From NCBI GenBank assembly GCA_051819665.1, contig JBNJDG010000007.1:1-51057 (forward strand): 51,057 bases of DNA, in the 5' to 3' direction. The position numbers and the translations under genes were made by a program. The stretch is from Nanobdellota archaeon (lineage in GTDB: Archaea > Nanobdellota > Nanobdellia > Woesearchaeales > CAZZGN01). Shown here piece after piece: positions 13,332-49,548 of this stretch. A model generated the notes under the pieces. The model was given only the letters and a program-made list of their open reading frames with translations, was not told the DNA's origin and did no database searches. Positions within the stretch are counted from its first letter, which is position 1. Every line of letters begins with the position of its first letter.

Positions 13332-13522
13332 TTTTTATCCTTCTCCATAAGATAGAGCATAATCGGCCTCATATTGCCTCCTTTCTCCTTCGCGAAATTT
13401 ATCAGGAACTGATTATCCTTCTTAGCACATTCCTCGCAGATGAAGATTTCCTCTGCAACAACAAGCCCTTTAGGATGCTCATTGGGTTCCATATCCATAT
13501 CACACATTCCACACGATTTCAT
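13328..13522 (-). CDS. Small C4 zinc-finger protein
   Basis: CGMC...ICEEC; ATGA overlaps on both sides. Confidence 0.6.
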   Translation of the reverse strand: MKSCGMCDMDMEPNEHPKGLVVAEEIFICEECAKKDNQFLINFAKEKGGNMRPIMLYLMEKDKK

Positions 13523-14325: not shown

Positions 14326-14363
14326 AAAAAAAACAGAAGAAGAAGTATTTAATAAAGTTATTG

Positions 14364-14729
14364 TCAGATGGACTTCACTCCGATATCCTTGAAGATCTTC
14401 GTCAGGTATTTACCGAGATAGCCCTTGAGCAGGAACATGAATATATTCTCTCCGCTTCCTTGAGCACATGGTTTGGATATAGTATTGATGATCTTATCCA
14501 CTGACTCGGCTATCTTATCCTGATCCAGAGAGTTAATATCCTCCCTGACCTTCATCACTTTTCCGTTCTCACCATCTTCAATAGACATGTATTTGAAAGC
14601 TTCAACTTCTTCCTTCTCCAGGGTCTGCTTGATTATATGCTCCATATAATCTTTAGAAGTAGCCTGACTACCCACTTCAAGGACAACATTGAGAAGTACA
14701 TCCATCTTTTCACGATTGTTCAGAGCCAT
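14364..14729 (-). CDS. Hypothetical soluble protein in the signalling operon
   Basis: 121-aa ORF starting 1 nt after the receiver gene; no recognised motif. Confidence 0.6.
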   Translation of the reverse strand: MALNNREKMDVLLNVVLEVGSQATSKDYMEHIIKQTLEKEEVEAFKYMSIEDGENGKVMKVREDINSLDQDKIAESVDKIINTISKPCAQGSGENIFMFLLKGYLGKYLTKIFKDIGVKSI

Positions 14730-14730
14730 T

Positions 14731-15102
14731 TTACAACACCTTATCTATCCTATTCTTAAGGTCTTCCAGCTCGAAAGGTTTCTCTATATAATCCTCTGCC
14801 GTGAGCGAGCCCATACCCTTGCTGAGATTATCCGTCTTGCCGGTCAGGAAGATTATCGGCACATCAGACATGTTATCATCATCCTTTATCTTCGCCGCGA
14901 CTTTCCATCCATCCATCTCCGGCATCATTATATCCAGGAGTACAAGGTCATACTTATCCTTCTTAAGTTTATCAAGAGCCTTCTGTCCTGAGTTGACCGT
15001 GGTTATTTCGTAGTCTTCAGCTATAGATTTCAACCCCTGCTCAACAGTCATGAGCATATCCTCGTTATCATCCACTACAAGTATCTTTTTCACATCAATC
15101 AC
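14731..15102 (-). CDS. Stand-alone response regulator receiver
   Basis: ILVVDD, DLVLLDIMMPEMDG, IIFLTG, YIEKPF. Confidence 0.92.
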   Translation of the reverse strand: MIDVKKILVVDDNEDMLMTVEQGLKSIAEDYEITTVNSGQKALDKLKKDKYDLVLLDIMMPEMDGWKVAAKIKDDDNMSDVPIIFLTGKTDNLSKGMGSLTAEDYIEKPFELEDLKNRIDKVL

Positions 15103-15104
15103 CC

Positions 15105-17195: not shown

Positions 17196-19540
17196 AATCC
17201 TAATTCCTCTCTCAGTTTCTTATTCTCTTCTTCTATCGTCTGGAGCTCAAGTATCTGTTCAACAGCATTATCCTTGAAATCATTGAGCATCTTGACCTTT
17301 TCCTTGAGCTGATTCTCGTATCTCTTCCTCTCAGTTATATCCCTCATCACACCCGCTATCTTAACTGGTTTCTTATCCTTATCATATACGAGATGAGCAT
17401 TGATTGAAACATCTATCTTCCCGCCGTCACTCTTCAAGAGCTGAACCTCATAACCCTTGACCTTGCCTTCTTTCTTAAGAGTCTCCATGAAAGGTTTCCT
17501 GTCAGAAGGATTCCTGTATATAGAAAAAACTGACTTCCCGATAACATCACTGGGTTCATAACCACCCAGATCCTTCAGAGAGGGACTCACTGTCTTTACA
17601 ACCCCTTCAAAATCTGTTTCGAAGTAAAGGTCCTGATATTCCCTGAAAATGTTCATATACCTCTCTTTCTCTTTCCTTAGCTTCTCTTCGGCTTCTTTCT
17701 TACCGGTGATATCCTGACCGGAGATCAATGAGGAACGCTTTCCCGCATAATTTATGATCTCGACCCTGAGATTGAACCATTTGACTTTCCCCTGTTTTGT
17801 CAGGACCTTAAGCTCATAACTTTTCTTGGGCTGACCGCCTTTTTCTCTCGCTTTCGCTCTCTTGAGTATCATCCCTTTATGGTCCGGATGGACCACATCC
17901 ATGAAAGTCATCGAAAGAAGCTCTTTCTTACTGTAGCCCAATGCTCTTGAGGCCTCATTATTAGCATACAACCAATTACCATGCCTGTGGATAAGTATAG
18001 GTACAGGGGCAGATTCAGTGAACATCCTGAACTTCTCCTCCGAATTCTTCAATTTCATCTCTGCTTTCTTTCTCTCTGTGACATCATCAACAATAACCAT
18101 TAGCTTATTCTCTTCCTTACCTTTTAAAGGTATGCCTGTAAATATCCTCGTGGTCTTCTTACCAGAAATAGAGGATGTGTAATCCAAAGGACCGACCTTG
18201 AAATAATTCCCCTCAAGTCCATTCCTTACCTTCTTATCCAGGCCGATTTTCTTATATCCTGGAAGTTTAAGCATATTAAGCTCCATGAATTTTTTCTTGG
18301 GTGCTCCGGCAATCTTGAGCATCTCTTTGTTCACGTAATCAACATCACCATTGCTATTAACCGTATATATCCCGAAAGGTGATTTATCTATAATCTCCTT
18401 GTTAAATTCATTAGCCCTTTCTATCTTCTCCTCATCCTCTTTCCTTTCAGTAATATCAATAGCCGAGACCATTAAAGAGGGTTGGCCTTCATATATTATC
18501 TTCTCGACCCTCATGTTCACCCATCTTTCTTTTCCTTTCTTTGTCACAGCCTTTATCTCGTACTCATTCTTGGGCCCTCTGCCTTTCTCACGGGATTTTG
18601 CCCTTCCCAATACAAGATTCCTGTAATCGGGATGAACAATGCTTATAAAATGCATAGACAGAAGCTCATCCCTGTTGTATCCAAGAAGTTTTATGGCTTC
18701 CGAATTAGCATAGAGCCAATTGCCCCCCCTATGGATAAGAAGAGCCACAGGTGCAGAATCAGTGAATATACGGAATTTCTCTTCCGATTCCTTCAGTTTT
18801 TTCTCTGTCTTTTTCCTCTTGGTGATATCCCTTGCAGAAGTTATTACTGCTTTCACTGTGCCTTTATTGTCAAATTCAGGAGCAAGCATCCAGTCAAAGG
18901 AAGGGCCGTTAGGAAGGGTGAATTCAATGTGATTCATCTCACCTGTTCTGAAGACTTTCCTGAGAGCTTTATGCCATTTATCCACCAGATACTGAGGAAA
19001 ACCTAGCTCTTCATGGGTCTTACCTATCATCTTCTCAGGATCCATACCCAACCTGATTTTCATGGCAGGGTTCACATACAGATGCCTCAGATCCCTGTCA
19101 AAACGCATGATTATATCTTCAGAATTCTCAGTTAAGGCCCTGAATATCTCCTCGGAATTCTTGAGCTTTTCCTCAGAGATTTTCCTTTCAGTGATATCCC
19201 TCATGATCGCCTGGACAAAATCCTTACCACCTATATTCACCGGATTAAGTGTAACCTCTGTAAAGAATTCCCCTTTCTTACCTTTGTGTTTCCATTCAAA
19301 AAAGACAGATTTCTTCCTGGCTTTGTCTATAAGTTCTTTTGCCTTTTTTATAGAACTTCCACCGTCTTCCTGTTTCCTGGGAGAGATCTGCCAGGGACCT
19401 CTTCCCTCTATCTCTGACTTATTAGCACCAAAGAGCCTGCAAGCCTTCCGGTTGCAATAGATGATACTGTAGCCACTTATCCATAAGACCGCCTCATGAG
19501 ATCGTTCAAACAGCGAATTAAAGATTTTTTTAAGTTCCAT
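17192..19540 (-). CDS. Six-PAS-domain protein without catalytic output
   Basis: Six PAS/PAC units ending DITER/DITKR/DITER/DVTER/DITGK/DITER, then a short coiled coil. Confidence 0.9.
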   Translation of the reverse strand: MELKKIFNSLFERSHEAVLWISGYSIIYCNRKACRLFGANKSEIEGRGPWQISPRKQEDGGSSIKKAKELIDKARKKSVFFEWKHKGKKGEFFTEVTLNPVNIGGKDFVQAIMRDITERKISEEKLKNSEEIFRALTENSEDIIMRFDRDLRHLYVNPAMKIRLGMDPEKMIGKTHEELGFPQYLVDKWHKALRKVFRTGEMNHIEFTLPNGPSFDWMLAPEFDNKGTVKAVITSARDITKRKKTEKKLKESEEKFRIFTDSAPVALLIHRGGNWLYANSEAIKLLGYNRDELLSMHFISIVHPDYRNLVLGRAKSREKGRGPKNEYEIKAVTKKGKERWVNMRVEKIIYEGQPSLMVSAIDITERKEDEEKIERANEFNKEIIDKSPFGIYTVNSNGDVDYVNKEMLKIAGAPKKKFMELNMLKLPGYKKIGLDKKVRNGLEGNYFKVGPLDYTSSISGKKTTRIFTGIPLKGKEENKLMVIVDDVTERKKAEMKLKNSEEKFRMFTESAPVPILIHRHGNWLYANNEASRALGYSKKELLSMTFMDVVHPDHKGMILKRAKAREKGGQPKKSYELKVLTKQGKVKWFNLRVEIINYAGKRSSLISGQDITGKKEAEEKLRKEKERYMNIFREYQDLYFETDFEGVVKTVSPSLKDLGGYEPSDVIGKSVFSIYRNPSDRKPFMETLKKEGKVKGYEVQLLKSDGGKIDVSINAHLVYDKDKKPVKIAGVMRDITERKRYENQLKEKVKMLNDFKDNAVEQILELQTIEEENKKLREELGL

Positions 19541-20480
19541 TCTTCAACAGATTGTTAATTATATTCAGAAGGTTGCCTATCTGCGGTTTGCTTATCTGAG
19601 CATCAGCCCCGATCTGCTCGCCTTTCTTCTTTATCTCCTCATAGATGAGGGAAGAAAAGAGAACAACAGGCAGAGTCTTCGTCTCTTTGTTATCCTTTAT
19701 CTTCTTGCAAAGGCTGTGCCCATCCATCTGCGGCATCTCTATATCTGTTACAAGGACCTGTACATAGTCAGTCAGTTTTTTCTTCTCCTTCTTGGCCTGT
19801 TGACTGAGCTCTTCAACATAAGAATAAGCCTGTTTGCCATTATTGACGCTAATCACCTCAAAACCACCCTTCTTGAGGACAGAGACAAGGAGATCCTTTA
19901 CAATGCCAGAATCCTCGGCAACAAGAGCCTTCTTACCGCCGTTCTGCTTGACCTGCTCTATGACATTCTTATCTGCCTCCACCGAAAGGCTTAGCTCAGG
20001 ATTGATGTCAGCGACGATCTTCTCGAAATCAATCATCATAACGATCCGGTCTTCGAACTTTATCACTCCGGTTACGCTCCTTTTCTCGGACTTATCTGTG
20101 ACCTCTTTGGGAGAAAGGATCTCCTGCCAGGACATCCTGTGTATCCTCTTTATATTATGTATGATGAAGCCGAAGTACTTCTGGTTGAACTCGGTGACCA
20201 CAACATAGCATTTAGAATAATCTCTCTCCGTGTACTCATTTAGCCAGGAGGCAAGGTCCACAAGAGGGACGATATGATCCCTGAACTTGAAAATGCCTAT
20301 CACATTCTCACCTGTGTTAGGCATCGAAGTATAATTAGGGAACTTTATTATCTCCCTCACTTTAGCAACATTGATACCGAAGGATTGTTTCCTCTCGCCG
20401 TCGGCAAGGTACATCTCAAACTCGGCTACCTCTACCTCATTTGTCCCTGTCTCAAGGAGTATGTCGTGATCAACGGCCAT
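19530..20480 (-). CDS. cheV: Chemotaxis protein CheV (CheW-REC)
   Basis: ILLETGTNEVE, FGINVAKVREII; receiver VAEDS, VTDIEMPQMDG, LFSSL, QISKP. Confidence 0.92.
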   Translation of the reverse strand: MAVDHDILLETGTNEVEVAEFEMYLADGERKQSFGINVAKVREIIKFPNYTSMPNTGENVIGIFKFRDHIVPLVDLASWLNEYTERDYSKCYVVVTEFNQKYFGFIIHNIKRIHRMSWQEILSPKEVTDKSEKRSVTGVIKFEDRIVMMIDFEKIVADINPELSLSVEADKNVIEQVKQNGGKKALVAEDSGIVKDLLVSVLKKGGFEVISVNNGKQAYSYVEELSQQAKKEKKKLTDYVQVLVTDIEMPQMDGHSLCKKIKDNKETKTLPVVLFSSLIYEEIKKKGEQIGADAQISKPQIGNLLNIINNLLKNGT

Positions 20481-20485
20481 GGCTA

Positions 20486-20956
20486 TCACTTACCCGCTTT
20501 TTTTATCTGCTCCATGTCCTTATTGCTGAGAAGCTTCGTAAGGTCAAGCAGGATAAGCAGACGCTCGTCAAGAACACCAACTCCGTCAATGAAGTCGCTG
20601 CTCACCTTTTTCGTGACAACTGCAGGTGCTTCCTCTATATTCTCTCCCTTTATACTGAGGACCTCTGTAGCCGAGTCAACGACCATCCCCACAGTGTTGT
20701 TATCCTTCTCGATCACAATGATCCTCGTATTATGATCTGCCTCCTTAGATTTCAGGCCAAGCTTCTTCGCAAGATCGAGCACTACTATGATCTTGCCTCT
20801 AAGGTTGATCACACCGTTGATGTAATCTTCTGTATTCGGAATCTTTGTAATCTGCTCCATACGGATGATCTCCTTCACTTCGTCTATATTGACTCCGAAT
20901 TCCTCATCCGCGAGCTTGAATACTACTACCTGTCTGCTTTCCTCGGCCATTTTCAT
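20486..20956 (-). CDS. cheW: Chemotaxis adaptor CheW
   Basis: [35 protein letters not shown] (start may be 20950). Confidence 0.95.
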
Positions 20957-23283
20957 TCCTCTTTCTTATTTTCCTTCTTCTGTGACTGTTTTGAAGCCTG
21001 GGACTGGGTTGTACTTCCTGCCGAGCTGCTTTTCTTGGCAGCAGCTTTTCCTGTACCGGAAGACTTGCCTGATCCCTGTGCAGAAGAAGTACTCTTTGCC
21101 TTTCCCTGGTTAGATGAACCGGATGTTTTGCCATAACCCTGGCCGGAAGAAGTACCCTGCTGACCTTTTTTCTTAGTCTCCTCAAGCTTCTTCCTGTTCT
21201 CCTCTTTCATCTTCTCCAGTTTCTCTTCCTCTTTCTCTTTAACTTTCTCAGCTTCCTGTTCGAATGATTCCGGAAGCTTGAACTTGGCAACCATGTTCTT
21301 CAGTGATTCAGCACCAGAGCTTAGGGTTTCAGCAGAATTGCTCACCTGCTGCATAGAGCTGGTAACTTCTTCAACGGAACTGCTTACCTCTTCACTGCCG
21401 GCGGCGTTCTCCTCAGCCACTGAAGACATGTCCGAAAGCTGATTCTCTACATTCTGGACAAGAGCGGGTATCTCCTCGAAAGCCACGAGAGCTTCCTGTA
21501 CTGCTGAAGTACCTTCCTCGACCTGTTTGGTGTTCTTGTCCATGCTCTGTACAGAGCTGTCTATCTCGTTCTGGATTGTCTGGATCAGCTCGGTTATCTG
21601 ACCGGTAGCTTTGCCTGACTGTTCTGCCAGTTTCCTTACCTCATCAGCTACTACAGCGAAGCCTCTTCCGGCTTCTCCTGCTCTTGCTGCCTCAATAGCC
21701 GCGTTAAGCGCAAGGAGGTTTGTCTGTTCAGAGATATCGTTGATCGTATCAACAATCTCACCGATCTGCTTGGATTTATCTCCGAGAGCCTTGACCTTCT
21801 CTGATCCCTCCTTGGTCGTTGAGGTGATGGAATCCATCTTCTCCTTGACCTGATTAGCTGACTGGCTTCCTTTCTTTGCTGACTCTGCTGTCTTCTTTGA
21901 AGACTGCTGTGCATCACTAGCGCTCTTGGAAGTGTTCTGGGCACCTTTGGCAACCTCCTGAACAGTAGAACTGACCTGCTGCATCGAGGCGTTAACCTCC
22001 TGCGCAGAAGCTGAAAGCTCTTCCGCAGAAGAAGCAGAAGACATAGCGTTCTTCTTTATCTTACCGACAAGATCCCTCAAACTTGTCACCATCGTGGATA
22101 GGGATGAGACCATCTCTCCCATCTCATTCTTGCCAAAATCCTTGTCAACCTTAACAGTCAGGTCTCCAGAGGATATCTTCTTGACCCTCTCTACGATATA
22201 ATAGAACCCATTGGTTATGTATCTTGAGAAAAGTATCGCTATCACCGAGGATATAAGTATTGCCACCAGAACTATTATTATCGTGTTATTCCTCATCTGC
22301 TTAAGGCCATCCTGGAAATCCTCTATATAGGCGCTGGACCATATCACCCAGTCAAGTTCAGGCACATAAGTATAACCGGCGATCTTCTGCCTTGCTCTGG
22401 CTTCACCTTCATTCTTCCAGTCATACTTAGCTATTCCGGTCTCTCCTTTACCTGCTTCCTGTGCATCTTTTATTGCATTCCTTATGAAATAATTTCCATC
22501 GGCATCCTTCGCATCCCAGATATTCTTTCCATCACTTTCCCTGTCCTTGGAGACAACATAATTGCCCTCTTCATCAAGAACAGCCACGTATCCTGTCTTT
22601 CCGACGGTGATCTCCGCAAATTCGTTCTTTAGCTCTTCAAGCTTCTCTTCCTTGACATTCATATTTGCAAGCTCATCATAATAAGTACTTACTCCTACAA
22701 CCCATTCCTTCTCAGGGAAATGCATGAGAGCAGCTATCTTGTCCCTCGGCTCTGGATCAGAGGGATTCTTCCATGGGTATGTCTGGTAGGCAAAATTCTT
22801 GCCCTCAAGACCCTTGGCCTTGTTTACCATCTCCCTGACGAAATATACGCCATCATTATCCTGGGCATTCCATATATTCTCTCCGTCCCTTTTCCTGTTC
22901 TTCGAGACTATATAATTCCCTTCGTAATCAAGAACGAAAACATATCCTGTATCTCCTACTGAGATATCGGCAAGCCTGTCCTTTATCTTCTCTTCAGAAT
23001 CCATTCCCTTAACCAGTTCATAGACCGCTTTCGCCTGCTCTGTCACAACTGATTTCGCCTGTTTTCTAGCAGATTCCCGGAGAGCAGTAATCTCCTCTTC
23101 TGTGCTCTCTGCACTCAATGCAAGCTGGGAGGCCTGCTGTTCAAGCCTTTCCTCTATCATTGAATTCGTATCCTGCTTCGCCTGATCATAGAGAACTACA
23201 CCCATTGTCACTGATACAGCGACTATAAGAATGATAAAAACTGAAACTAACTGCCATCTTAGACTAATGTCCTTTAATCCCAT
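20953..23283 (-). CDS. Methyl-accepting chemotaxis protein (TM, two Cache repeats, TM, HAMP, signalling domain, low-complexity tail)
   Basis: [35 protein letters not shown] hairpin; two VG.TGYV.VLD.EGNY repeats. Start MGLKD 23283 after GAGGTG. Confidence 0.96.
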
Positions 23284-23339
23284 GAAATAATACACCTCTT
23301 TTTTATGATAATTTTTTCCTGTAGTTGATTTTAATGTAT

Positions 23340-23360
23340 TTTATTTATAAGTTTTTCTAT
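23340..23360 (-). promoter_or_regulatory. Putative internal BRE/TATA promoter upstream of the MCP gene
   Basis: Minus strand atagaaaaacTTATAAATaa in the AT-rich gap between cheR and the MCP. Confidence 0.35.
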
Positions 23361-23381
23361 CTTACCCGGAAACAAAACCTC

Positions 23382-24167
23382 CTATTCCTTGACATAGATC
23401 CTCTCTCTGGGATTGAGTATCTGGAGCTTCTCCCTCGCTTCACCCTGTAGCACTTCAGTCTTCCCTATCACAAGGAAACCGTCATTGTTAAGGACTTCAT
23501 AAAAATCCTCATACAATCTTGCTTTCGCCTCCCTGTTAAAATAAATCACCGTATTCCTGCAGAATATGATATCCACCCTTCTCGGCCGGTATGTGTGGAT
23601 ATCCCCTATCTTATACTCTATAAGCCTGCTCACTTCCGGCTTCACCTGATACCTTCCATCACCCAGATCATCGAAGTATTTCTCCTTAAGGCCTGCGGGC
23701 ATCTCCCTGAACTGGTTCTCCTCATAAATCCCCTGCTTTGCTTTCTCTATAGTCCCATGATCTATATCAGTGGCTTCGATAGAGAAGGATATATCCTCGC
23801 CTGATTCAAGGAAAGAGATGGCTATGGAGACTGGCTCCTCTCCTGTTGAACAACCAGCAGACCATATCCTGACCTTTCTCTTGAGGTTCCCAACAAGGGG
23901 GATAACCTCTTCCATGAAAGCCTGCCACATATCATAATCCCTGAAGAAATGCGTTACGTGTATGCTCAATTCCTTATCGAGCTTCTCTTTCTCCTCATCA
24001 TCGCTATTGAGTATCCTGAGATATTCAGATATACTGTCAACATCATTGGCCCTTAATCTTACCCTTATCCTCCTCTCTATGAACTTTTCAGAATATTGTG
24101 AACAATCAAAGCCTATAAGCCTGTTTATCTCGCTCTTGAGCCTTCCTATATTCTCTGGGTCTCTCAT
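23382..24167 (-). CDS. cheR: Chemoreceptor methyltransferase CheR
   Basis: IHVTHFFRD, RIWSAGCSTGEEP, ATDID, DIIFCRNTVIYF, GKTE. Confidence 0.95.
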   Translation of the reverse strand: MRDPENIGRLKSEINRLIGFDCSQYSEKFIERRIRVRLRANDVDSISEYLRILNSDDEEKEKLDKELSIHVTHFFRDYDMWQAFMEEVIPLVGNLKRKVRIWSAGCSTGEEPVSIAISFLESGEDISFSIEATDIDHGTIEKAKQGIYEENQFREMPAGLKEKYFDDLGDGRYQVKPEVSRLIEYKIGDIHTYRPRRVDIIFCRNTVIYFNREAKARLYEDFYEVLNNDGFLVIGKTEVLQGEAREKLQILNPRERIYVKE

Positions 24168-24180
24168 GATATCTCTCTTC

Positions 24181-25212
24181 TCACTTTCTCGCCCTTTTTA
24201 TGACATCCTTGTCCCTTTCCTTGAAATACTTACCCTTACCGAAAACCGGGTGGACGGAAAGGTCTGCCTTGAACCTGAAAGCTTCTCCCTTCTTTCCCAG
24301 AACTTCGGCCATAGCCCTTACATGGGCAGCGACAGAACCACAGCAACTTCCAATATAATCAATCCCCATCTCTTTTGCTTCCCTGGCGAATTGAGCCATA
24401 TCAAACCTTGAAAGCTGGAAGGGATCAAGCTCGAGAGGGAAAGCCTTCCTGCCCTTATATTTCAAAGCCCAGAAATATTTTGTTTTCTCAGTGCATTTAT
24501 AAGCAGAAGGTTGAGCTGCTGTATAACAATCCACTTCATCAACAATCTTCTTCATTACCGGTAATGTTCTCTCAGGATCACGCTGGCAGTTTATCCCGAC
24601 TATATCAACACCCTGTTCATCAAGTTTCTTACAGGCATTGACCACATTAAACCCATCTTTCAGTTTCTCACTGTTCTTTATCATGAAGGTTATCATACAG
24701 GGTTTTCCAGTCCTCTTCACCTCATCAAGAGCTATGAGAGCTTCACCAAGATAATCGACTGTCTCAACGAGGAAGAAATCAACACCTTCTTTGTCCTGAA
24801 GCTCCACCTGTTCCCTTATAGCCTTCCTGGTCTCTTTCTCGGAATCCTCATCACCAGGAGTATATTGCCATGTCAATGCTATATTTCCTGCCACCAGGAC
24901 TTTCTTCCTGTTATTCTCATCGGCTATCTTTCTGGCTATCCTTACAGCATTCCTGTTGATATCATTCATATGCTTATGGCTCTCAGAGCTCCTGAGCTTC
25001 TCCCTCGTCCCATAAAAAGTGAAGGTCTGTAATACATCAACCCCTGCTCTCATAAATTCCCTATGTAGTTGTTCTACTGCTTCGGGCTCTTTTACAACAG
25101 CCTCTGGTGTGAAAGGTCCTGCTTTAACGTAACCTCTCTTCTCAAGCTCGAGGAGATAACCTCCATCTCCCAGAACAGGCCCTTTCTTCAGCTTATCAGT
25201 TATATTCACCAT
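24181..25212 (-). CDS. Homocysteine S-methyltransferase family, BHMT-like
   Basis: LGDGGYLLELEKRGYVKAGPFTPEAV, LHREFMRAG, Zn ligands GINC and GSCCG. Confidence 0.9.
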   Translation of the reverse strand: MVNITDKLKKGPVLGDGGYLLELEKRGYVKAGPFTPEAVVKEPEAVEQLHREFMRAGVDVLQTFTFYGTREKLRSSESHKHMNDINRNAVRIARKIADENNRKKVLVAGNIALTWQYTPGDEDSEKETRKAIREQVELQDKEGVDFFLVETVDYLGEALIALDEVKRTGKPCMITFMIKNSEKLKDGFNVVNACKKLDEQGVDIVGINCQRDPERTLPVMKKIVDEVDCYTAAQPSAYKCTEKTKYFWALKYKGRKAFPLELDPFQLSRFDMAQFAREAKEMGIDYIGSCCGSVAAHVRAMAEVLGKKGEAFRFKADLSVHPVFGKGKYFKERDKDVIKRARK

Positions 25213-25218
25213 TACCGA

Positions 25219-25701
25219 TCATACCTCCTGGATTCCATCTTTGGTCCTTATGGATATTTTACCTGTGTCAGTGTTGAACTTTATAGTCCTTCCCACCTGT
25301 CCGCCTGTAATCGCAGAAGATATATCAATGCCCAACTCATCAAGCACTTCCCTTACTGCTTTGGAGTTCTTCTTGCCTATATCCATAGCATCACTGTTCT
25401 GTAGAGCTCCGAACATATGGGCTCCTCCGACAATCTTAGCCTTAATCCTCTCTGTCCTGCATCCCTTTTTCTTCATATCATCTATCATGGCAGGTATCGC
25501 TTTATCAGCAAACTTATTGGGGTTGACATTCTTCCTGCTCTCCTCACTGGAAGGAAGCATAACATGAGCCAGTCCCCCTATCTTCTTTTCAGGATCATAA
25601 AGAGCACATCCGATACAGGATCCGAGGCCCAAGGCTACAAGCACCTTCGGGCTCTCCCCTATGATGTACTTACCCATATCTGCCATGATCTCTTCAGCCA
25701 T
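25219..25701 (-). CDS. cheD: Chemoreceptor glutamine deamidase CheD
   Basis: LGLGSCIG, GGLAHVMLP, KFAD, AKIVGGAHMF, IGKKN. Confidence 0.95.
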   Translation of the reverse strand: MAEEIMADMGKYIIGESPKVLVALGLGSCIGCALYDPEKKIGGLAHVMLPSSEESRKNVNPNKFADKAIPAMIDDMKKKGCRTERIKAKIVGGAHMFGALQNSDAMDIGKKNSKAVREVLDELGIDISSAITGGQVGRTIKFNTDTGKISIRTKDGIQEV

Positions 25702-26321
25702 TAATTCACACCCATTCCATATTTTTTCTCCAGCGATTCAAGCATTATATCGAGTGATTGTTCCTCAAACACAAGTATGAACGAACCATTGACGGAAAAA
25801 CCATCCACCTCTATTGTGGTCTTTATTGAGAGGATCTGGTCGGCAGTCTTGCCTATCCCGGCAACAATAGAATCCAGGACCGCCTGAGCCATATCAGTGG
25901 CCATCAAAGGAGGTTCAGGCATGACTTTCATATCAAGCATATCCCCTATGGCAGTCAGATATGATCCAACTATGACATTGGACATCTCCTTAAAAGATGA
26001 TATGGCCATCTCATCCATCTCCTTAGCTTCTTCTCCCATCACAAGCTTTACCAGATTAAGAGCATCCTCTTCGGGGAACAGGAATAAAGCCTGACCTTTC
26101 ATATCTCCTGTCACCTTAAGATAAAGGCACCTGATTATCTTTTCCGCACCACCAACCTCTTCAGCGAATCTCTCAAGAGGGATAAGTTTGGTATCTGGGA
26201 GAGAGATTGTAACATCTTTTCCGATGAGTTGAGAGAGCGCCGTAGCCGCATTCCCTATACCAACATTCGCTACTTCTCCCAATGCATCAACCTGCATATC
26301 ATTATACTTTTTCATCTTCAT
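25701..26321 (-). CDS. cheC: CheY-P phosphatase CheC
   Basis: DALGEVANVGIGNAATALSQ and SSFKEMSNV active-site motifs. Confidence 0.92.
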   Translation of the reverse strand: MKMKKYNDMQVDALGEVANVGIGNAATALSQLIGKDVTISLPDTKLIPLERFAEEVGGAEKIIRCLYLKVTGDMKGQALFLFPEEDALNLVKLVMGEEAKEMDEMAISSFKEMSNVIVGSYLTAIGDMLDMKVMPEPPLMATDMAQAVLDSIVAGIGKTADQILSIKTTIEVDGFSVNGSFILVFEEQSLDIMLESLEKKYGMGVN

Positions 26322-26938
26322 ACACCGTAAATCTTATTCAATATATCTGCCATCTGTTTGAGGGACTCATCCTCAAAAAGCATCACGAATTCTCCGTCTA
26401 TATCATGGCCCTCTACTTCTATCTTAGTATGAACTGATAGGATCTCATCAGCTGATTTAGCTAGATTGATCAAAGCGAAGTCTATGACTGACTGTGCCAT
26501 ATCAGTCGCCACATGGGGTACAGACGGGAATACTTTTATCGAGAGCATATCAGCGATAGCGTTCACATAGGAACCTGCAAATATATTGGACATCTCCTTG
26601 AAAGCAGACATCCCCATCTCATCGATAACTTTCGTCTGACCAGGATCATTCCCCACCATGAGATCCACCAACTGCTTTGCACTCTCCTGTGGGAAAAGCA
26701 GGATACATTCTCCCTTTATATCACCAAATATATTAAGATATAATGACATCACAACCTTTTCCGGGCCACCTATGAACTTTGAAAATTCACTTATAGGCAC
26801 AAATTTTGTTTCAGGTACCTTTATCTCGATCTTCTTATCAAGAAGCTGGGATAAAGCGGTAGCCGCATTACCTATCCCCACATTGCCTACTTCCTTGATT
26901 GCGTCCTCTTGCATCTCATTGATTTCCATCATTTTCAC
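26318..26938 (-). CDS. cheC: CheY-P phosphatase CheC (second copy)
   Basis: DAIKEVGNVGIGNAATALSQ and SAFKEMSNI. Confidence 0.92.
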   Translation of the reverse strand: MKMMEINEMQEDAIKEVGNVGIGNAATALSQLLDKKIEIKVPETKFVPISEFSKFIGGPEKVVMSLYLNIFGDIKGECILLFPQESAKQLVDLMVGNDPGQTKVIDEMGMSAFKEMSNIFAGSYVNAIADMLSIKVFPSVPHVATDMAQSVIDFALINLAKSADEILSVHTKIEVEGHDIDGEFVMLFEDESLKQMADILNKIYGV

Positions 26939-28000
26939 CTAAAACCCGAATATCTTCGCGAGATTATATTTAATATTATCCTTCTTTGCATCTGAAGCCT
27001 TCCTGAAATGGCCGGCTATCAGTTTCTGTGTGAAGGACTCATAATCCTTATATTTAAACCCGTTTATCGTCTGATTGTTCATATCGTTAAGGATATTATC
27101 AATCTCTGTATAAGAAAGATGAAGGAGCTTGAAAAAGCTTTCAACGTCCTGCCTTACATCTCCTGTAAGTTGGACCATCACCTTAGGAGGTGATTGTTCC
27201 AGCGGATCCTTCTTCTGCGAGGCCTGATCCACAAGGCTCTCGAATGATTCCATTGATTGTTTTATGAAAAAGTATATCTTTCCTGTATAATCTTTCTTCC
27301 CAAGATTTATCGTTGTTGATGATGTGTATATCTTTTCAGGTTTTATAAACTCACCCTGGAAGAAATACTTCTCCTTGAAGGATTCGTAGCTTATCGGTGT
27401 GAAATATACCTCTTCACCGAACGCATCACCTATACAACTCACGAAAGCAGGAAGCAGGATATTGAAGAATTCATTCACTGCAGAGATCTTCATGTCGTCT
27501 ATCTCCTGTCCTGAAGAAGCGGAACCCGTCATCGCCTGCATCATTATATTCGCAAAGTCAATTACCTCTTTCTTGTCCATCGAGAACATCAGAAGCCCTT
27601 CCAGAAGATTCGAGCTCTCAAAACCGAATTTAATCGTGTCATTACTGTCTATTTCCTGGAGCAGGGAATCTGCATATTCAATATCAACATTCACAAGAGG
27701 TTCAAGTTTCACTTCTGATTTCTTATGGATCATCTTCTCCACTTTCTCGATAGCCTCATTAAGGGAGAATCTCAGGAGCAAGAGGATCTTGATATTCTCT
27801 ATCTTCTGCTTACTGTAAAATTTCTTGAACACACTTTCTACTATCTTCTGACCGAAACTGATCTTCTGTTTGAAAGTCAGAGAGGAGAAACCCTTTATCC
27901 CGAACTTCCTCATCTTCTGTTTTAACAGCTGATCAGCGATTGACCTACTGAAACGGTCGTTAAAAAATTCAACAATTATCTCTTCTGCTTTCTTTTTCAT
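26939..28000 (-). CDS. Divergent CheC/CheX-like core flanked by two related unknown helical domains
   Basis: DDMKISAVNEFFNIL matches the CheC S-x2-E-x2-N motif; LEGLLMFSM..EVIDFANIMM strand-helix; N- and C-terminal segments resemble each other. Confidence 0.6.
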   Translation of the reverse strand: MKKKAEEIIVEFFNDRFSRSIADQLLKQKMRKFGIKGFSSLTFKQKISFGQKIVESVFKKFYSKQKIENIKILLLLRFSLNEAIEKVEKMIHKKSEVKLEPLVNVDIEYADSLLQEIDSNDTIKFGFESSNLLEGLLMFSMDKKEVIDFANIMMQAMTGSASSGQEIDDMKISAVNEFFNILLPAFVSCIGDAFGEEVYFTPISYESFKEKYFFQGEFIKPEKIYTSSTTINLGKKDYTGKIYFFIKQSMESFESLVDQASQKKDPLEQSPPKVMVQLTGDVRQDVESFFKLLHLSYTEIDNILNDMNNQTINGFKYKDYESFTQKLIAGHFRKASDAKKDNIKYNLAKIFGF

Positions 28001-28003
28001 TTT

Positions 28004-29962
28004 CTACCATAGACTGCCAAGATCAAGTATCAGGGCTACAGTTCCGTCACCGAGTATCGTCGCACCCGAAAGACCTTTTGTCCCTTTCACTATCTCCTGC
28101 AATGCCTTTATTAGTATCTGCTGCTGCCCCACTACAGAATCAACAACAAGACCGACTTTCTCTCCGTCCCTGTTCACTATGACCACTGTATTATCTTCTT
28201 TCTTCTCAAAATCACCTTCACCAACCAATTCATGAAGCCATAATAAGGGTATCTCCCTGCCATCAAGGATATATACTTCATTACCCTTTATCGTCTTAAC
28301 ATCGGAGAGTTTTATATCCATTATCCTCTCTACCGCATTAAGAGGGAGAGCATATACAGAGTTGGATATCTTTACGAGCATGGCTGATATGATCGCTACC
28401 GTCAGTGGAAGTTTTATCTTGATGGAAGTCCCTTTACCAGGCGTAGAGTCAAGATTGAAAGAACCTCCCAGCTGCTTCACCTTATTCGCCACTACATCCA
28501 TCCCGACACCTCTGCCGGAGACATCTGTGACTTTCTCGCTGGTGCTCCCTCCTGCACGGAAGATGAGCATCTGCAGCTGTTTATCAGTCATGTCCTTCGC
28601 TTCTTCCTCAGTTATGATCCCTTTCTTTATGAAAGACTTCTTTACCTTCTGGGGATCTATTCCAGCACCGTCATCGATTACCTCGACCACCGCATTATTC
28701 TTCTCCCTGCTAGCGACCAGCTTTAATGTCCCCTGCTCGGACTTACCAACATTGATCCTCTCATCAGGGGTCTCGATCCCATGATCGATAGAATTCCTCA
28801 ACAGATGAACTAAAGGATCCCCTATCTCATCAAGGACTGTCCTGTCGAACTCTATCTCCTGCCCTTCTATCTGGAGATCCACCTTCTTTCCTTCCTTCTT
28901 GGCAAGATCCCTGACCATCCTGGGAAAACGCTTGAATATATTACCAATAGGGACCATCCTGATCTCCATCACCTCATCCTGGAGCTCAGTACTGAGTCTG
29001 TCTATTCCTGAGACCACTCCCCTGAGATGATCATAGGTTTTTTTCTTGTCTATATCCTGGAGCCTCATATTGCTTATCAGAAGCTCCCCTACAAGATTCA
29101 CGAGCTTATCGAGCTTATTCATCTCGACCTTCACAGACTGGACCTGCTTCACAGCACTCGATTTATGCTTATCCGCGATCTTCGATTTTGACTGTTCCTT
29201 ATCCTCATGGACAGAATCATCAGAGCGTTTATAACTCTCATCAAGGCCCAGGGTATATACTTCTTTTATGCCGGAAACCTTCTTTATGACAGACTCAACC
29301 TCTTCTTTCTTTTTCTTGGAACCAAAGATCACTTCAATCTCCGATTCGAAATTTCCTTTCTTTATCTCTGCATGCTTAGGGTTAAGCCTGATGAACTCCC
29401 CTATGTTATTAAGATCCCTTATTATGACAAGGGACTTTGCTGTCTTCAATACATTCTCACTATCGAATATGAGTATTATCCTGAATATGTTCATCTTTTT
29501 CTTCTTGAGCTTATTGACATCAGTCTTTTCCTTCTTTGTAAGTTGAGCCTTCTCGTTAATTTTAACATCAACATCCTCTTTCTCATTACCGAGGAGCTCT
29601 TTCAGATCTGATATGATGCCTTCAGCGTCAAGGTTTTCAGACTTCCCGTTCTCTATCTCCTCAAGACCTGATTCCAGAACATCACATCCTTCAAAGATCT
29701 TATCCAACACATCCGATGCGGGTTTTAGTTCCTTATCCCTTATCTTGGAAAGAACATCCTCCAGAGAATGTGCAAGCTCAGAGAACTTCATGAAGCCCAT
29801 AGTCGCAGAATTGCCTTTAAGGGTATGGAACCCTCTGAAAAGCTTATGTATATTGTCCTGATCAGAAGAATCTTTCTCTAAGACCAAAAGGCCTTCATTG
29901 ATGTTATCGAGGTGTTCCCTCGCTTCCGAGATGAACTCTTTTTTGTATTCTGACATATCCAT
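28004..29962 (-). CDS. cheA: Chemotaxis histidine kinase CheA
   Basis: LFRGFHTLKG (Hpt), LDKLVNLVGEL, DPLVHLLRNSIDHGIE, DDGAGID, DVSGRGVGMDVV, GATILGDG. Confidence 0.97.
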   Translation of the reverse strand: MDMSEYKKEFISEAREHLDNINEGLLVLEKDSSDQDNIHKLFRGFHTLKGNSATMGFMKFSELAHSLEDVLSKIRDKELKPASDVLDKIFEGCDVLESGLEEIENGKSENLDAEGIISDLKELLGNEKEDVDVKINEKAQLTKKEKTDVNKLKKKKMNIFRIILIFDSENVLKTAKSLVIIRDLNNIGEFIRLNPKHAEIKKGNFESEIEVIFGSKKKKEEVESVIKKVSGIKEVYTLGLDESYKRSDDSVHEDKEQSKSKIADKHKSSAVKQVQSVKVEMNKLDKLVNLVGELLISNMRLQDIDKKKTYDHLRGVVSGIDRLSTELQDEVMEIRMVPIGNIFKRFPRMVRDLAKKEGKKVDLQIEGQEIEFDRTVLDEIGDPLVHLLRNSIDHGIETPDERINVGKSEQGTLKLVASREKNNAVVEVIDDGAGIDPQKVKKSFIKKGIITEEEAKDMTDKQLQMLIFRAGGSTSEKVTDVSGRGVGMDVVANKVKQLGGSFNLDSTPGKGTSIKIKLPLTVAIISAMLVKISNSVYALPLNAVERIMDIKLSDVKTIKGNEVYILDGREIPLLWLHELVGEGDFEKKEDNTVVIVNRDGEKVGLVVDSVVGQQQILIKALQEIVKGTKGLSGATILGDGTVALILDLGSLW

Positions 29963-29971
29963 AATAAAACC

Positions 29972-30970
29972 TCATATATCCAATAATTGCACTACGGCAA
30001 CCGTCATCTGGTCCAGAGGCACGACCTCGTCCGCCAGCCCCTCTTCAGCAACCGACTTCGGCATACCGTATATTATGCATGATTCTTCCGCTTCCGACAC
30101 CACCGTGCCGCCGTATCTCTTAATCTTCCTGCTTCCGGAGGTTCCATCCTGACCCATGCCGGTAAGGACCAAGGCGATAGTCTTATCCTTATAAACAGGC
30201 GCAGCCGAATTAAAAAGCCTGTTCACATTGGGTCTTACTCCAAGCTCAGGTGGTTTCTTGTTCAGCACCACCTTATCAGGGTCCTCCGGATCTATCTCCA
30301 TATGGTAACCTCCGGGCGCTAAAAGAGCAAGCCCGTTCTTAAGCCTGTCACCATGCTCCGCTTCCTTGACTTCAAGATCACATGCCGAATTCAGCCTCTC
30401 AGCAAAAGACCTTGTGAAAAGAGGAGGCATATGCTGAACTATCAGGATGGGTGAAGGTGTGTTGGCAGGGAATTCCTGGAGGAGTTTTTCCAGCGTCTGC
30501 GGACCACCTGTCGAAGCCCCTATAAGGATTATCTTCTCTGATGAAGGGGCAAAACTGTAAGACTTTTTCTCCGGCGTCTCATCAAATTTATGCACCCTCG
30601 CCATTGCAAGCGATTTTATCTGTTTGATTACCTTATCCTTAACCGAATCCACATTACTGGGTTTGGTTATGAAATCCACAGCCCCTGCTTTCATAGCATC
30701 GAAAGCCTTGTTGTTGTCTGAGTCACCAGTGAGCATTATGACCGGGAGAGGCCATTCTTCCATTATCTCTTCAAGGGCAGTTATACCGTCCTTGCCCGGC
30801 ATCTCAAGATCCATAAGTACTATATCAGGCCCGTGCTTCTTTACTTTCTCCAGAGCATCGTCCCCGTCCTTAGCAGTATCAACTACATCTATCTCATCAT
30901 CGGAGGAAATCATATCAGTTATAAGTTTCCTCATCAGGGCAGAATCATCAACAACCAGGGCCTTTATCAA
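29972..30970 (-). CDS. cheB: Chemotaxis methylesterase CheB (REC-CheB)
   Basis: VVDDSALMR receiver; GASTGGP, VQHMP, LTGMGQDG catalytic triad; TTG start after GAGGTG. Confidence 0.96.
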   Translation of the reverse strand: MIKALVVDDSALMRKLITDMISSDDEIDVVDTAKDGDDALEKVKKHGPDIVLMDLEMPGKDGITALEEIMEEWPLPVIMLTGDSDNNKAFDAMKAGAVDFITKPSNVDSVKDKVIKQIKSLAMARVHKFDETPEKKSYSFAPSSEKIILIGASTGGPQTLEKLLQEFPANTPSPILIVQHMPPLFTRSFAERLNSACDLEVKEAEHGDRLKNGLALLAPGGYHMEIDPEDPDKVVLNKKPPELGVRPNVNRLFNSAAPVYKDKTIALVLTGMGQDGTSGSRKIKRYGGTVVSEAEESCIIYGMPKSVAEEGLADEVVPLDQMTVAVVQLLDI

Positions 30971-30982
30971 GAGAATACACCT

Positions 30983-31336
30983 CTAATTCTGGAGTACTGA
31001 AAGTACATCCTCCTTCTTGAACGGTTTCGTTATGAAATCTGAAGCTCCTTCCTCAACTGCCTGATTAACCACTTTCTCCTGGCCCACCGAAGTGCACATC
31101 ACCACATTCGAAGACTTATCCACTTGCTTTATCCCCTTGAGAGCCTGGATTCCGTCCATATTTGGCATCATTATGTCCATGAAGACTATGTCCGGTTTGA
31201 GCTCTTTATACTTGTCTATAGCCTGCTGACCATCAGCCGCCTCACCGACAACTTCAGAGCCTGCCTCGTTAACCAATTTTTTCAGCATATTCCTCATGAA
31301 AGCTGAATCATCCGATAATAATACTTTATATCCCAT
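30983..31336 (-). CDS. cheY: Chemotaxis response regulator CheY
   Basis: DDSAFMR, YKELKPDIVFMDIMMP, MCTSVGQ, FITKPF. Confidence 0.93.
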   Translation of the reverse strand: MGYKVLLSDDSAFMRNMLKKLVNEAGSEVVGEAADGQQAIDKYKELKPDIVFMDIMMPNMDGIQALKGIKQVDKSSNVVMCTSVGQEKVVNQAVEEGASDFITKPFKKEDVLSVLQN

Positions 31337-31345
31337 CTTGTCACC

Positions 31346-31711
31346 TCAGAGGTTCTTATTCACCGCATCTGATATATCCTGTCTGCTGAAAGGTTTCATT
31401 ATGTATCCTGCCGCTCCTGCATCCTTAGCTCTCTTCTCCTGTTCCGGTTCCTTGAGAGAAGTACACATTACAACCTTGGCGGAAGAATCATTGTTTCTTA
31501 TATTCTCAAGAGCAGTTATACCGTCCATGCCGGGCATCTTGATATCCATGAAGACCAGATCCGGCTTCTCTTCCTTGTACTTTTTGACCCCTTCTTCTCC
31601 TGAATTAACAGAGATTATCTCTATATCACCTTTAGCCTCTTTCTTTATGAAATTACTCAGAACAGAGACCATAAGTTTAGAGTCCTCTACAATCAAAACT
31701 TTTTTTCCCAT
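31346..31711 (-). CDS. cheY: Second CheY-like receiver
   Basis: LIVEDS, KPDLVFMDIKMPGMDG, VMCTS, YIMKPF. Confidence 0.85.
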   Translation of the reverse strand: MGKKVLIVEDSKLMVSVLSNFIKKEAKGDIEIISVNSGEEGVKKYKEEKPDLVFMDIKMPGMDGITALENIRNNDSSAKVVMCTSLKEPEQEKRAKDAGAAGYIMKPFSRQDISDAVNKNL

Positions 31712-31717
31712 CCTTAA

Positions 31718-32824
31718 TCACCTTATATTGAAAAAATTTGTAGCTACATTACAACATCCTTTAAGGACCATATCCTCATCTTCCACTATATATACAGGCA
31801 CCTTCCTCAATACGGAAGAGCGTTTATCATGTTCCTCAAAGTGTTCCATGAACTCTCCAGACCTGAAAAGATGTTTGTTATCAACTGCGATCTTTCCTGT
31901 AATGAAAAGACCTCCATAGCATTCAGAAACGAGAGCAAGATATCTACCGGCTCTGGCGTATATGGATATGAACATACTAACAGCTTTCTTGCAGGTCTCA
32001 TCATGATCATAATTATCGAATATATTAGCCGCTTTATAACCCTCTGAAAGATTATCTATCACTCTTGTTATATCAGATTCCTCATACATACCTTTCTCTC
32101 TAAGGAAGCCATAGATCCTTTCAATTCCCCTTTCTGAAAGGACTCTCTCGAGCTCAGGATGTATGGATTCTTCGCTCAGCGAATGTTTCCTCAGGTAATC
32201 GACAAGCTCCCTCTCAAGGTCATCATATGGAGTGAAATCCATATGCCCTCCTTCTGAAGGCAGGGGTACATGGAGATGCCTGTCGTAATCATAAGGGGCG
32301 ATGGTCATACCAAGTCCCTTGCCTGCGCCAAGGACAGAACATGTGTAGCCGATCGAGCTCCCGTCAGTGAGATCCTGACCAATATGTGGAAGCTCTGTAG
32401 CCTTTGAAGACATATCTATAAGATCCAAAGCATAGCCTTCTGCCTCAAAATCATTGAGAAGGATCACCTTGTTCAGCATGGTATTGTTAAGGATCGAATC
32501 AGCATGAACTGTCCTGTCAAGGTTTGTCAGACTTATATATCCTCGTCTCCTCGACACTGGACCTGCAGCAGCAATAGCACATCTGTTCACCTCAATACCA
32601 TAATCCCTGTTATCATAATACAATACCTCATTTATGGCAGAAGAGAAGTCCCTTATATTATGAGTATTGAAATAATACTTTGTGATTATATCATAATCAT
32701 GCTTTCCCTTCACACCCATCATAGAGAGTACAGTATTATCAACATCAATGCTTCCGCATAATAAAAAGAAATCATAATCGTTAATGTCGAACCTATCCTG
32801 AGCTACAATAATCTCTTTTCTCAC
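31718..32824 (-). CDS. Glucokinase (Glk-family) homologue with degenerate ATP-binding motifs
   Basis: AAAGPV, LTN, LLNDFEA, GAGKGLG, PSEGGHMDF, ERVLS, GGLFITG, VPVYIV. Likely GTG start 32824 after GAGGTG. Confidence 0.85.
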   Translation of the reverse strand: MRKEIIVAQDRFDINDYDFFLLCGSIDVDNTVLSMMGVKGKHDYDIITKYYFNTHNIRDFSSAINEVLYYDNRDYGIEVNRCAIAAAGPVSRRRGYISLTNLDRTVHADSILNNTMLNKVILLNDFEAEGYALDLIDMSSKATELPHIGQDLTDGSSIGYTCSVLGAGKGLGMTIAPYDYDRHLHVPLPSEGGHMDFTPYDDLERELVDYLRKHSLSEESIHPELERVLSERGIERIYGFLREKGMYEESDITRVIDNLSEGYKAANIFDNYDHDETCKKAVSMFISIYARAGRYLALVSECYGGLFITGKIAVDNKHLFRSGEFMEHFEEHDKRSSVLRKVPVYIVEDEDMVLKGCCNVATNFFNIR

Positions 32825-32935
32825 AAAGACACCTCTTTTTAAATACCTATACATAATGTCTTCGTTCTGATTATTAAATGTTTCGATTAGATGGATAGAA
32901 AGATTTAAAATATAAAAGTTAGATTATAGGATAAT

Positions 32936-49155: not shown

Positions 49156-49548
49156 ATGCAGGAAAAAATGATTGAATGGCTAAGGAATTACCTTAAACAC
49201 AAGGATCTTCTGCAGAAGAAGCTCAAGGAGTTCAGGACAGAAGGGAACGTGCTGATTGCCGTCTACAAGGATAAGGAGAAGAGATACCTCGTCATGGAGA
49301 ACTTTGAAGAGAAAGACTTCTCCGGCCTTCACGGGATTGTCGTTCTCAATAAGGAAGATAACCTGAAGAAGATCATAAAGTCCTGGCCCAAGCTCATAAA
49401 ATATACCGGGCTGTGCCTGTATTCCATAAATCCTGACTCTACGACAGAACAGAAATGGGCAGTATTCCCATCAACACATCACCAGATAACAGGCTCCCTA
49501 AAGAAAGGACTGAGGTCTATGTTTGAGACTGTTGACCCTGTCCGCTAG
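49156..49548 (+). CDS. Hypothetical protein
   Basis: 130-aa ORF with ATG downstream of a TTTTTAAA element; no recognised motif. Confidence 0.65.
   Translation: MQEKMIEWLRNYLKHKDLLQKKLKEFRTEGNVLIAVYKDKEKRYLVMENFEEKDFSGLHGIVVLNKEDNLKKIIKSWPKLIKYTGLCLYSINPDSTTEQKWAVFPSTHHQITGSLKKGLRSMFETVDPVR

Follow-up and report, generated by a model that had tools for sequence, protein, structure and literature searches.

Introduction

Sugar-kinase folds are known to serve in sensing: the ROK regulators Mlc and NagC sense without kinase activity, and the hexokinase-type glucose sensors HXK1 of Arabidopsis and Hxk2 of yeast remain active enzymes and act on gene expression. In the chemotaxis of E. coli and B. 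subtilis that depends on the phosphotransferase system (PTS), proteins of sugar uptake and phosphorylation modulate CheA. We know of almost no archaeal chemotaxis input other than membrane receptors. Here, we describe a glucokinase-like (Glk-like) gene located in a chemotaxis (che) operon, directly upstream of the first cheY, in a stretch of 51,057 nucleotides from a Nanobdellota archaeon of the Woesearchaeales (GenBank assembly GCA_051819665.1, contig JBNJDG010000007.1, positions 1 to 51,057 of the forward strand), hereafter called the window. The encoded protein has the fold and the sugar-binding residues of a glucokinase, but most of its canonical nucleotide residues are replaced; its genome holds a second sugar kinase, and its sequence has changed about twice as fast as those of its sisters, an acceleration not shared by the Che proteins encoded beside it.

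The original prediction for this gene, made from the sequence of the window, was that of a pseudo-glucokinase that lost ATP use, kept glucose binding and was repurposed as a cytoplasmic sensor feeding the chemosensory system. In the literature on glucokinases with chemotaxis operons, with CheY or in Woesearchaeota, we found no description of such a protein. An excerpt of one Woesearchaeota study gives glk in two of nine metagenome-assembled genomes and expression of CheABCD in one (PMC11606122).

A glucokinase fold with an intact sugar site and an altered nucleotide site

The Glk-like open reading frame (ORF) occupies 31718..32824 of the minus strand, with a GTG start and a TGA stop at 31718-31720, and encodes 368 amino acids with the PF02685 glucokinase fold. 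The longest frame at this place is slightly longer (31718-32854, minus strand, 378 amino acids), but its ATG at 32854 is without a Shine-Dalgarno-like site. The GTG at 32824 is preceded by the Shine-Dalgarno-like GAGGTG (32830..32835, minus strand), at a spacing of five nucleotides as read from the sequence, and yields a protein as long as the database gene call (P0002) and nearly all close homologues. Six nucleotides separate the TGA from the ATG of cheY1 at 31711. The full-length frame, the ribosome-binding site of its own and the short gap before the first cheY were thus all seen as described. The source genome (G000) is that of a small DPANN archaeon (1.12 Mb in 64 contigs, 96% complete), and close homologues carry the name Candidatus Woesearchaeota in their source records.

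PF02685 is the sole Pfam match of the protein (E = 9.9e-49; 166.5 bits for a cut-off of 22.1; profile positions 7-311 of 314), and the sequences of solved E. coli-type glucokinases match it at E ~1e-18. An AlphaFold2 model based on 46 homologues reached a mean predicted local distance difference test score (pLDDT) of 93.8, and its best Foldseek matches were 1sz2_A and 1q18_A (E = 4e-27), both with the two-domain ASKHA glucokinase fold. The first of these, E. coli Glk with glucose, was the best structural match, with a template modelling score of 0.89 normalised to the target. ROK repressor structures were distant fold matches only (E about 1e-12), and the Pfam scan of the protein detected neither a helix-turn-helix domain nor PF00480 (ROK). 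Alignment and structure model thus agree on the glucokinase family. Against the NCBIfam glucokinase equivalogs, the best score was 147.6 bits for a cut-off of 333. We dropped these cut-offs as a marker of ‘true’ glucokinases, because they do not discriminate in the Woesearchaeal lineage: a canonical Woesearchaeal Glk (239.6 bits) and other members of the clade described below (181-203 bits) fail them alike.

The protein was then aligned to E. coli K-12 Glk (from NC_000913.3), whose numbering is used for single residues; residue ranges are those of the window protein, and all motifs lie on the minus strand. All five sugar contacts (N99, D100, E157, H160 and E187) are kept. Indeed, the motifs LTN, NDF, EGGH and ER, which had been listed as retained sugar-binding motifs, are unchanged from E. 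coli Glk: LTN stands at residues 99-101 (32522..32530; T75 and N76 conserved), NDF, with the sugar-contact Asn and the catalytic, sugar-contact Asp, at residues 124-126 (32447..32455), EGGH within SEGGHMDF at residues 190-197 (32234..32257; sugar-contact Glu and His), and ER within LERVLSERGI at residues 225-234 (32123..32152; E187). An excerpt of a published paper places the glucose site of E. coli Glk at positions 99-101, Gly138, 157-160, His160 and Glu187 (PMC12312565).

By contrast, six of the seven canonical nucleotide residues (D9, G11, G12, T13, T137, G262 and G263) are changed. In the PHOSPHATE-1 loop, GDVGGTN has become GSIDVDN (residues 24-30; 32735..32755), with D9S, G11D, G12V and T13D; in the PHOSPHATE-2 motif, GAGTGLG has become GAGKGLG (residues 166-172; 32309..32329), with T137K; in the ADENOSINE motif, AGGI has become TGKI (residues 309-312; 31889..31900), the second Gly being replaced by Lys (G263K). 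The SGxG loop that follows E187 has changed from SGPGL to SERGI (G192E), and NPGLLG from its E. coli form to DMVLKG. Each of these replacements had been correctly reported as an altered nucleotide contact, except that PGLLG also varies among ordinary Glk proteins and is not to be counted as one. For the motif names and the columns assigned to nucleotide motifs, we follow what we take to be the ASKHA motif definitions. Nucleotide contacts were read from family motifs because, according to the same excerpt, an E. coli Glk structure with ATP or ADP does not exist (PMC12312565).

To gauge how selective these changes are, we took 74 canonical Glk rows (L025-L097 and E. coli) and the 48 columns in which their identity reaches 85% or more. 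In the window protein, 37 of these columns are unchanged and 11 are lost, namely D9S, G11D, G12V and T13D in phosphate-1, T137K in phosphate-2, G192E in the SGxG loop, G263K and Y259F in the adenosine motif, and N247Y, L111I and A309C elsewhere. Eight losses fall within the 20 nucleotide-motif columns and three within the other 28 (Fisher p = 0.034, with the motif columns as we assume them). On this alignment evidence, losses in the nucleotide motifs exceed chance, and the predicted pattern of a kept sugar site beside selectively lost nucleotide motifs is borne out.

Other candidate sugar kinases in the same genomes

A separate, intact kinase was looked for in the source genome and found. The window gene is the only PF02685 gene there, and no ADP-dependent kinase was found in this genome. 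A ROK-family kinase of 264 amino acids, with intact DIGGTS, GTGIGGG and VIGG motifs, lies between a bacterial-type (SIS) phosphoglucose isomerase (PGI) and a TrmB sugar regulator (contig C11, L178:1082-3745). It aligns end to end with a polyphosphate-glucose phosphotransferase model, at 62 bits, far below the cut-off of 250; by eye, it is without the Cys-rich zinc motif. Among genomes with a che-linked copy of the Glk-like gene, a second candidate sugar kinase was present in all six that were checked: the ROK kinase just described in the source genome, a canonical Glk beside ribulose-phosphate epimerase and transketolase in G041, two further Glk-family genes in G042, and one ROK gene each in G043, G044 and G045.

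Conserved linkage to che genes

A protein search through 5.8 billion proteins returned 87 hits, the first 49 of which (P0002-P0050; 39-100% identical, approx. 368 amino acids) form a group, hereafter the clade; the next tier starts at E = 6e-28 and 28% identity. For genomic context, 185,579 species genomes were scanned and the best 80 loci taken, with annotation by phmmer using the window's own Che proteins; a metagenome scan gave 80 further loci. Clade homologues with readable context are those recovered as such loci (L018-L024 and L098-L104), i.e. few of the 49 database homologues.

In each of the six nearest genome loci (L018-L023; 45-55% identical), cheY comes immediately after the Glk-like gene; five of them go on as cheY-cheB-cheA, and L023 as cheB-cheR. 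In the metagenomes, L101 shows the order CheC-like, Glk-like, cheY, cheY. Together with the window, the Glk-like gene thus directly precedes cheY in 8/8 che-linked loci, which make up eight of the twelve clade loci whose context is readable. By their coordinates, four of the eight have at most 13 nucleotides between the stop of the Glk-like gene and the start of cheY; the remaining operon genes are arranged differently from locus to locus. The other 74 of the best 80 genome loci had no adjacent che genes, with receiver or Che-like hits lying 4-10 kb off in L031, L065, L080, L083, L087, L091 and L094, and about 149 loci outside the clade (73 genome and 76 metagenome loci) revealed no adjacent che genes. 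Co-location with che genes is conserved across diverged genomes. The original description of the gene as the head of a che operon applies to the window but does not extend to all relatives: it is internal in L019 and L023, and stands behind a CheC-like gene in L020, L021 and L101.

CheA itself was detected in 10 of 201 genomes of the order (besides the source genome, these are G008, G030, G046, G056, G078, G095, G157, G167 and G188). In the part concerned, a 2022 comparative study of 352 archaeal genomes describes DPANN as being without a chemotaxis system (PMC9680633); a full che operon in a small Woesearchaeal genome, and CheA in a fraction of its order, contrast with the absence stated in that part of the study. 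Five of the nine other CheA loci had enough upstream DNA for their context to be read, and four were cut by contig ends.

Three clade loci, L098:2021-3121, L099:755-1879 and L100:2158-3282, form a sister subgroup and present another context, with a divergent upstream transporter of 570 amino acids (major facilitator superfamily) and a downstream Memo-like gene. In all three, the phosphate-1 Thr is replaced by Glu, and the phosphate-2 Thr by Asn (L098) or Ser (L099 and L100). Judging from these replacements, this is possibly another non-canonical Glk-like protein, in a transport context.

Erosion of the nucleotide site across the clade

The contrast between the two sites extends to the clade. 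The sugar contacts N99, D100, E157, H160 and E187 are kept in 49, 48, 49, 48 and 49 of the 49 clade rows, whereas D9, G11, T13, T137 and G263 are kept in 40, 42, 21, 25 and 13, respectively. Of the 38 other Glk hits, 37 have T13 and all 38 have both T137 and G263; position 137 is Thr in 74/74 non-che loci. At position 263, Arg or Lys has replaced Gly in 25 of the 49 clade rows. None of the 42 full-length inner-clade members has all seven canonical nucleotide residues, against 35 of the 38 other Glk hits, and the window protein is among the four most degenerate of these 42 at the nucleotide site. The clade also has invariant features of its own, among them a C-terminal GCCN motif.

On a maximum-likelihood tree of 93 rows (quick search), the losses require at least 13 independent changes in the phosphate-1 triad, at least 11 at T137 and at least seven at G263. 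The eight che-linked loci all fall inside one clade of 53 rows (SH-aLRT 93), together with the L098-L100 and L024 groups. In none of the other che-linked copies is the second Gly of the adenosine motif kept. Some of the che operons of the order have taken up a glucokinase paralogue in which the sugar pocket stays conserved and the ATP site erodes repeatedly.

Constraint and acceleration

Constraint was gauged by the retention of conserved columns and by relative-rate tests, in place of the ratio of non-synonymous to synonymous substitution rates (dN/dS). Across the other 45 clade members, 68 columns reach a conservation of 90% or more, and the window protein keeps 61 of these; with seven deviations, it ranks fifth of 46. 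Among the clade members scanned, none scores lower with Pfam or NCBIfam. Relative-rate tests counted 59 unique changes in the window protein for 28 in its sister P0003 (p = 9e-4), and the window copy has about twice as many lineage-specific changes as either of its sisters P0003 and P0004. Between the same two operons, CheA (89 versus 72), CheB (57 versus 46), CheY1, CheC and CheD displayed no significant asymmetry; among 18 tests on neighbours, a single one was nominally below 0.05, one of the three CheY2 tests (18 versus 7, outgroup L022, p = 0.028). Salt adaptation was rejected as the cause of the acceleration: the lineage changes gain six acidic residues and lose eight, and the che neighbours are not accelerated.

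The 48 lineage-specific changes are spread along the protein, but residues 181-210, the sugar-binding segment, hold only one, which is conservative. The confident model and the retained clade-conserved columns agree with the original view of a full-length ORF and show no general wreck. Taken together, these data fit a protein under continuing constraint from which one set of constraints has been lifted.

In two RNA-labelled runs of one study (X1 and X2), contigs extend in one piece and without differences through cheY2 and cheY1 and over the greater part of the Glk-like gene. These contigs end at 32748 (X1) and 32711 (X2), cover resumes at 32950 in X2 and the intergenic region is uncovered; this gap would fit transcripts over DNA, yet missing contig cover proves nothing. 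Runs X3, X4 and X5 covered only small shares.

The che operon of the window

Downstream of the Glk-like gene, and likewise on the minus strand, cheY1 (31346..31711) encodes a distinct class of CheY (IVEDS...CTSLKEPEQE...YIMKPF), and cheY2 (30983..31336) an ordinary archaeal-type CheY according to domain scan and class comparison. Both classes retain the phospho-acceptor Asp, the Thr/Ser and the Lys. The distinct class (IVEDS..CTSLKEPEQE..YIMKPFSRQDI) directly follows the Glk-like gene in seven of the eight che-linked loci and is present too in che operons without a Glk-like gene (L182, L185 and L189). According to the Pfam scan, cheB (29972..30970) and cheA (28004..29962) come next, and the cluster ends with two cheC genes, cheD, a homocysteine S-methyltransferase gene, cheR, a dCache methyl-accepting chemotaxis protein gene, cheW and cheW-REC (19530..26938). 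A SpoIIM-like membrane protein is encoded upstream of the Glk-like gene and divergently from it.

Between cheA and the first cheC lies a gene for a protein of 353 amino acids (26939..28000, minus strand) without a Pfam hit. Its family profile matches 4hyn at E = 6.5e-7, and its model (pLDDT 76.6) matches CheC 1xkr (Foldseek E = 2e-8) and FliM middle domains, which gives it a CheC/FliM/FliY fold with helical N- and C-terminal extensions. Relatives are encoded at L019:17243-18301, L020:3440-4507, L021:8822-9886, L101:1790-2854 and L188:15787-16956, and in L020, L021 and L101 this gene stands directly upstream of the Glk-like gene. Because the source genome has 11 archaellin matches and no match to CheF (PF04283) or ArlCDE (PF04659), the 353-residue protein is a candidate for the missing link between phosphorylated CheY and the archaellum.

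The homocysteine S-methyltransferase domain protein (24181-25212, minus strand; PF02574, E = 1.5e-49), encoded between cheD and cheR, had no match in any other che locus that was examined, and may have to do with how CheR is supplied with methyl groups. Directly past the che genes, the region 13519-19540 (minus strand) encodes a protein of 782 amino acids with about five PAS domains and no output domain, a histidine kinase of 696 amino acids, a receiver, an ORF of 121 amino acids without a Pfam hit and a small HATPase protein. Elsewhere in the window, a single ORF of 467 amino acids (49517-50920, minus strand) combines the domains of the primase small subunit (PF01896) and large subunit (PF04104) in an apparent PriS-PriL fusion.

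Possible roles of the Glk-like protein

We give an even chance to the reading in which the gene is a Glk paralogue recruited into the che operon, kinase-dead and hexose-binding, and signals to the Che pathway. Sugar binding, kinase inactivity and a physical or functional coupling to Che proteins are plausible elements of it. In evolutionary terms, a Woesearchaeal clade of group-II (Glk-type) glucokinase paralogues would have been recruited as an accessory part of the archaeal (F1-type) chemosensory operon, though only into some of the che operons of Woesearchaeota, with the nucleotide site under relaxed or altered selection and the sugar pocket under strong selection. In this genome, ATP-dependent phosphoryl transfer would have been given up with the hexose pocket intact. 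The protein would then bind a hexose in the cytoplasm, either glucose or a sugar closely resembling it; on binding, its domains would move from the open to the closed arrangement, as is typical of this fold, and the closed state would be passed to the Che pathway, probably via the CheY encoded directly behind the gene or via CheA. Swimming bias would thereby reflect intracellular sugar supply, and the metabolic phosphorylation of glucose would be left to the ROK kinase beside PGI.

A more daring proposal, which we hold tentatively and find a good deal less probable, is that of a dedicated, receptor-independent cytoplasmic sugar sensor that reports hexose occupancy to CheY or CheA. Such a protein could be a sugar-gated modulator or sink of CheY-phosphate, and its kinase chemistry would have been lost repeatedly since only domain closure would matter. 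A complex prediction for the Glk-like protein and CheY1 gave no answer (score 0.00, without controls) and counts neither way.

Several observations weigh against the recruited, kinase-dead sensor. The first concern the nucleotide site of its relatives. Of the seven che-linked copies besides that of the window, six retain DxGG, and position 137 is Thr in three, Ser in two and Ala in one. The loss of DxGG is thus confined to the window lineage and a few others; che linkage is accordingly older than full loss of the nucleotide site, many che-linked members may, from their motifs, still bind nucleotide, and the family may be an active kinase in most lineages, of which the window copy could be a degenerate offshoot. 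In the window protein itself, the catalytic base D100 is kept, which fits binding but also residual catalysis.

The second concern the linkage. L098-L100 and L024 (whose genome has cheA on another contig) are clade loci without che linkage, and relaxed nucleotide motifs are also found in the members of these two groups. The proposed association of homologues with che genes therefore holds for the seven other loci with the gene directly before cheY, but not for these. The Glk-like gene was absent from all five other che loci of the order with enough flank, so that it has to be regarded as an accessory rather than a core part of the system. A search for longer proteins joining a Glk-like to a Che domain found none, which is weak evidence. 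The last concern selection and expression. A twofold acceleration is also expected from relaxed selection on a dispensable gene; the nearest relative with DNA is 55% identical in protein, at which synonymous sites are saturated and dN/dS is not estimable; and the contigs of RNA-labelled runs are a hint of transcription only, as such libraries can carry DNA. The original choice of a repurposed sugar sensor over random decay is thus supported in part: the motif pattern and the che linkage are real, but the full loss of the ATP motifs is lineage-specific and relaxed motifs reach beyond che-linked members.

Alternatively, the protein could act in the che pathway other than as a glucose sensor, which seems unlikely to us: as a scaffold or adaptor, or as a sugar-dependent sink or modulator of CheY-phosphate, perhaps with the 353-residue CheC/FliM-like protein. 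The invariable position directly upstream of cheY in the che-linked loci, the three loci in which the CheC-fold gene directly precedes the Glk-like gene, the archaellins of a genome without CheF or ArlCDE matches and the clade's own invariant features, such as GCCN, would all suit such a role. However, the near-invariance of the five sugar contacts is hard to explain unless a sugar is bound.

Less probable again is a dispensable relic, i.e. a che-linked paralogue decaying without present function after takeover by the ROK kinase. The gene-specific acceleration, the rank of the window protein among the most degenerate clade members at the nucleotide site and its lowest profile scores in the clade (147.6 bits versus 181-203) are what such decay could produce. 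Nevertheless, the frame of 368 codons is intact behind a strong ribosome-binding site, the fold is predicted confidently, most clade-conserved columns including all sugar contacts are kept, the lineage-specific changes all but spare the sugar-binding segment, contigs from the RNA-labelled runs cover the gene, and a DPANN genome of this small size would be expected to shed useless genes.

Finally, an active sugar kinase with an unusual nucleotide or donor site, kept in the che operon for co-expression and coupling sugar catabolism to motility, is the least probable reading: the catalytic Asp and all sugar residues are kept, most clade members retain DxGG, and the recurrent Arg or Lys at position 263 would be consistent with a different donor rather than a loss, but the window copy has D9S, G11D, G12V, T13D, T137K, G192E and G263K at positions kept in 35-38 of the 38 other Glk, and the metabolic step is already provided for by the ROK kinase next to PGI.

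Comparison with known systems

Were the protein a sugar sensor, it would show that an enzyme has been converted in nature into a sensor whose ligand governs behaviour. It would also offer a small, soluble signalling module that binds glucose, and would hint at the way in which archaea that depend on hosts locate partners rich in sugar. Its closest described relative is group II Glk (E. coli Glk, PDB 1SZ2/1Q18), with which it shares family, fold and the five sugar contacts. It differs from it by the replaced residues of the PHOSPHATE-1, PHOSPHATE-2, SGxG and ADENOSINE motifs, by an excess of about 45 residues (N-terminal extension and inserts) and by its location in a che operon instead of a metabolic context.

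By analogy with Mlc and NagC, the window protein would have kept an ASKHA sugar-kinase fold, lost its kinase function and come to be used as a module sensing a ligand or partner. Unlike these, it belongs to the Glk family and is without a DNA-binding domain, and its presumed output is chemosensory, not transcriptional. Similarly, HXK1 and Hxk2 offer an analogy in that a hexose-phosphorylating fold carries a signalling function separable from catalysis; unlike them, the window protein has a degenerate nucleotide site and a chemotaxis context.

The functional analogue would be PTS taxis, in which a protein that handles sugar in the cytoplasm provides input to the Che pathway, whether or not a ligand is bound in the periplasm, as may be the case here. 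The proteins involved are unrelated, no PTS takes part, and the coupling proposed for the window is drawn from gene order only. Should this coupling be real, PTS-less, host-dependent DPANN archaea would gain an input for ‘metabolic taxis’ analogous to the PTS taxis of bacteria.

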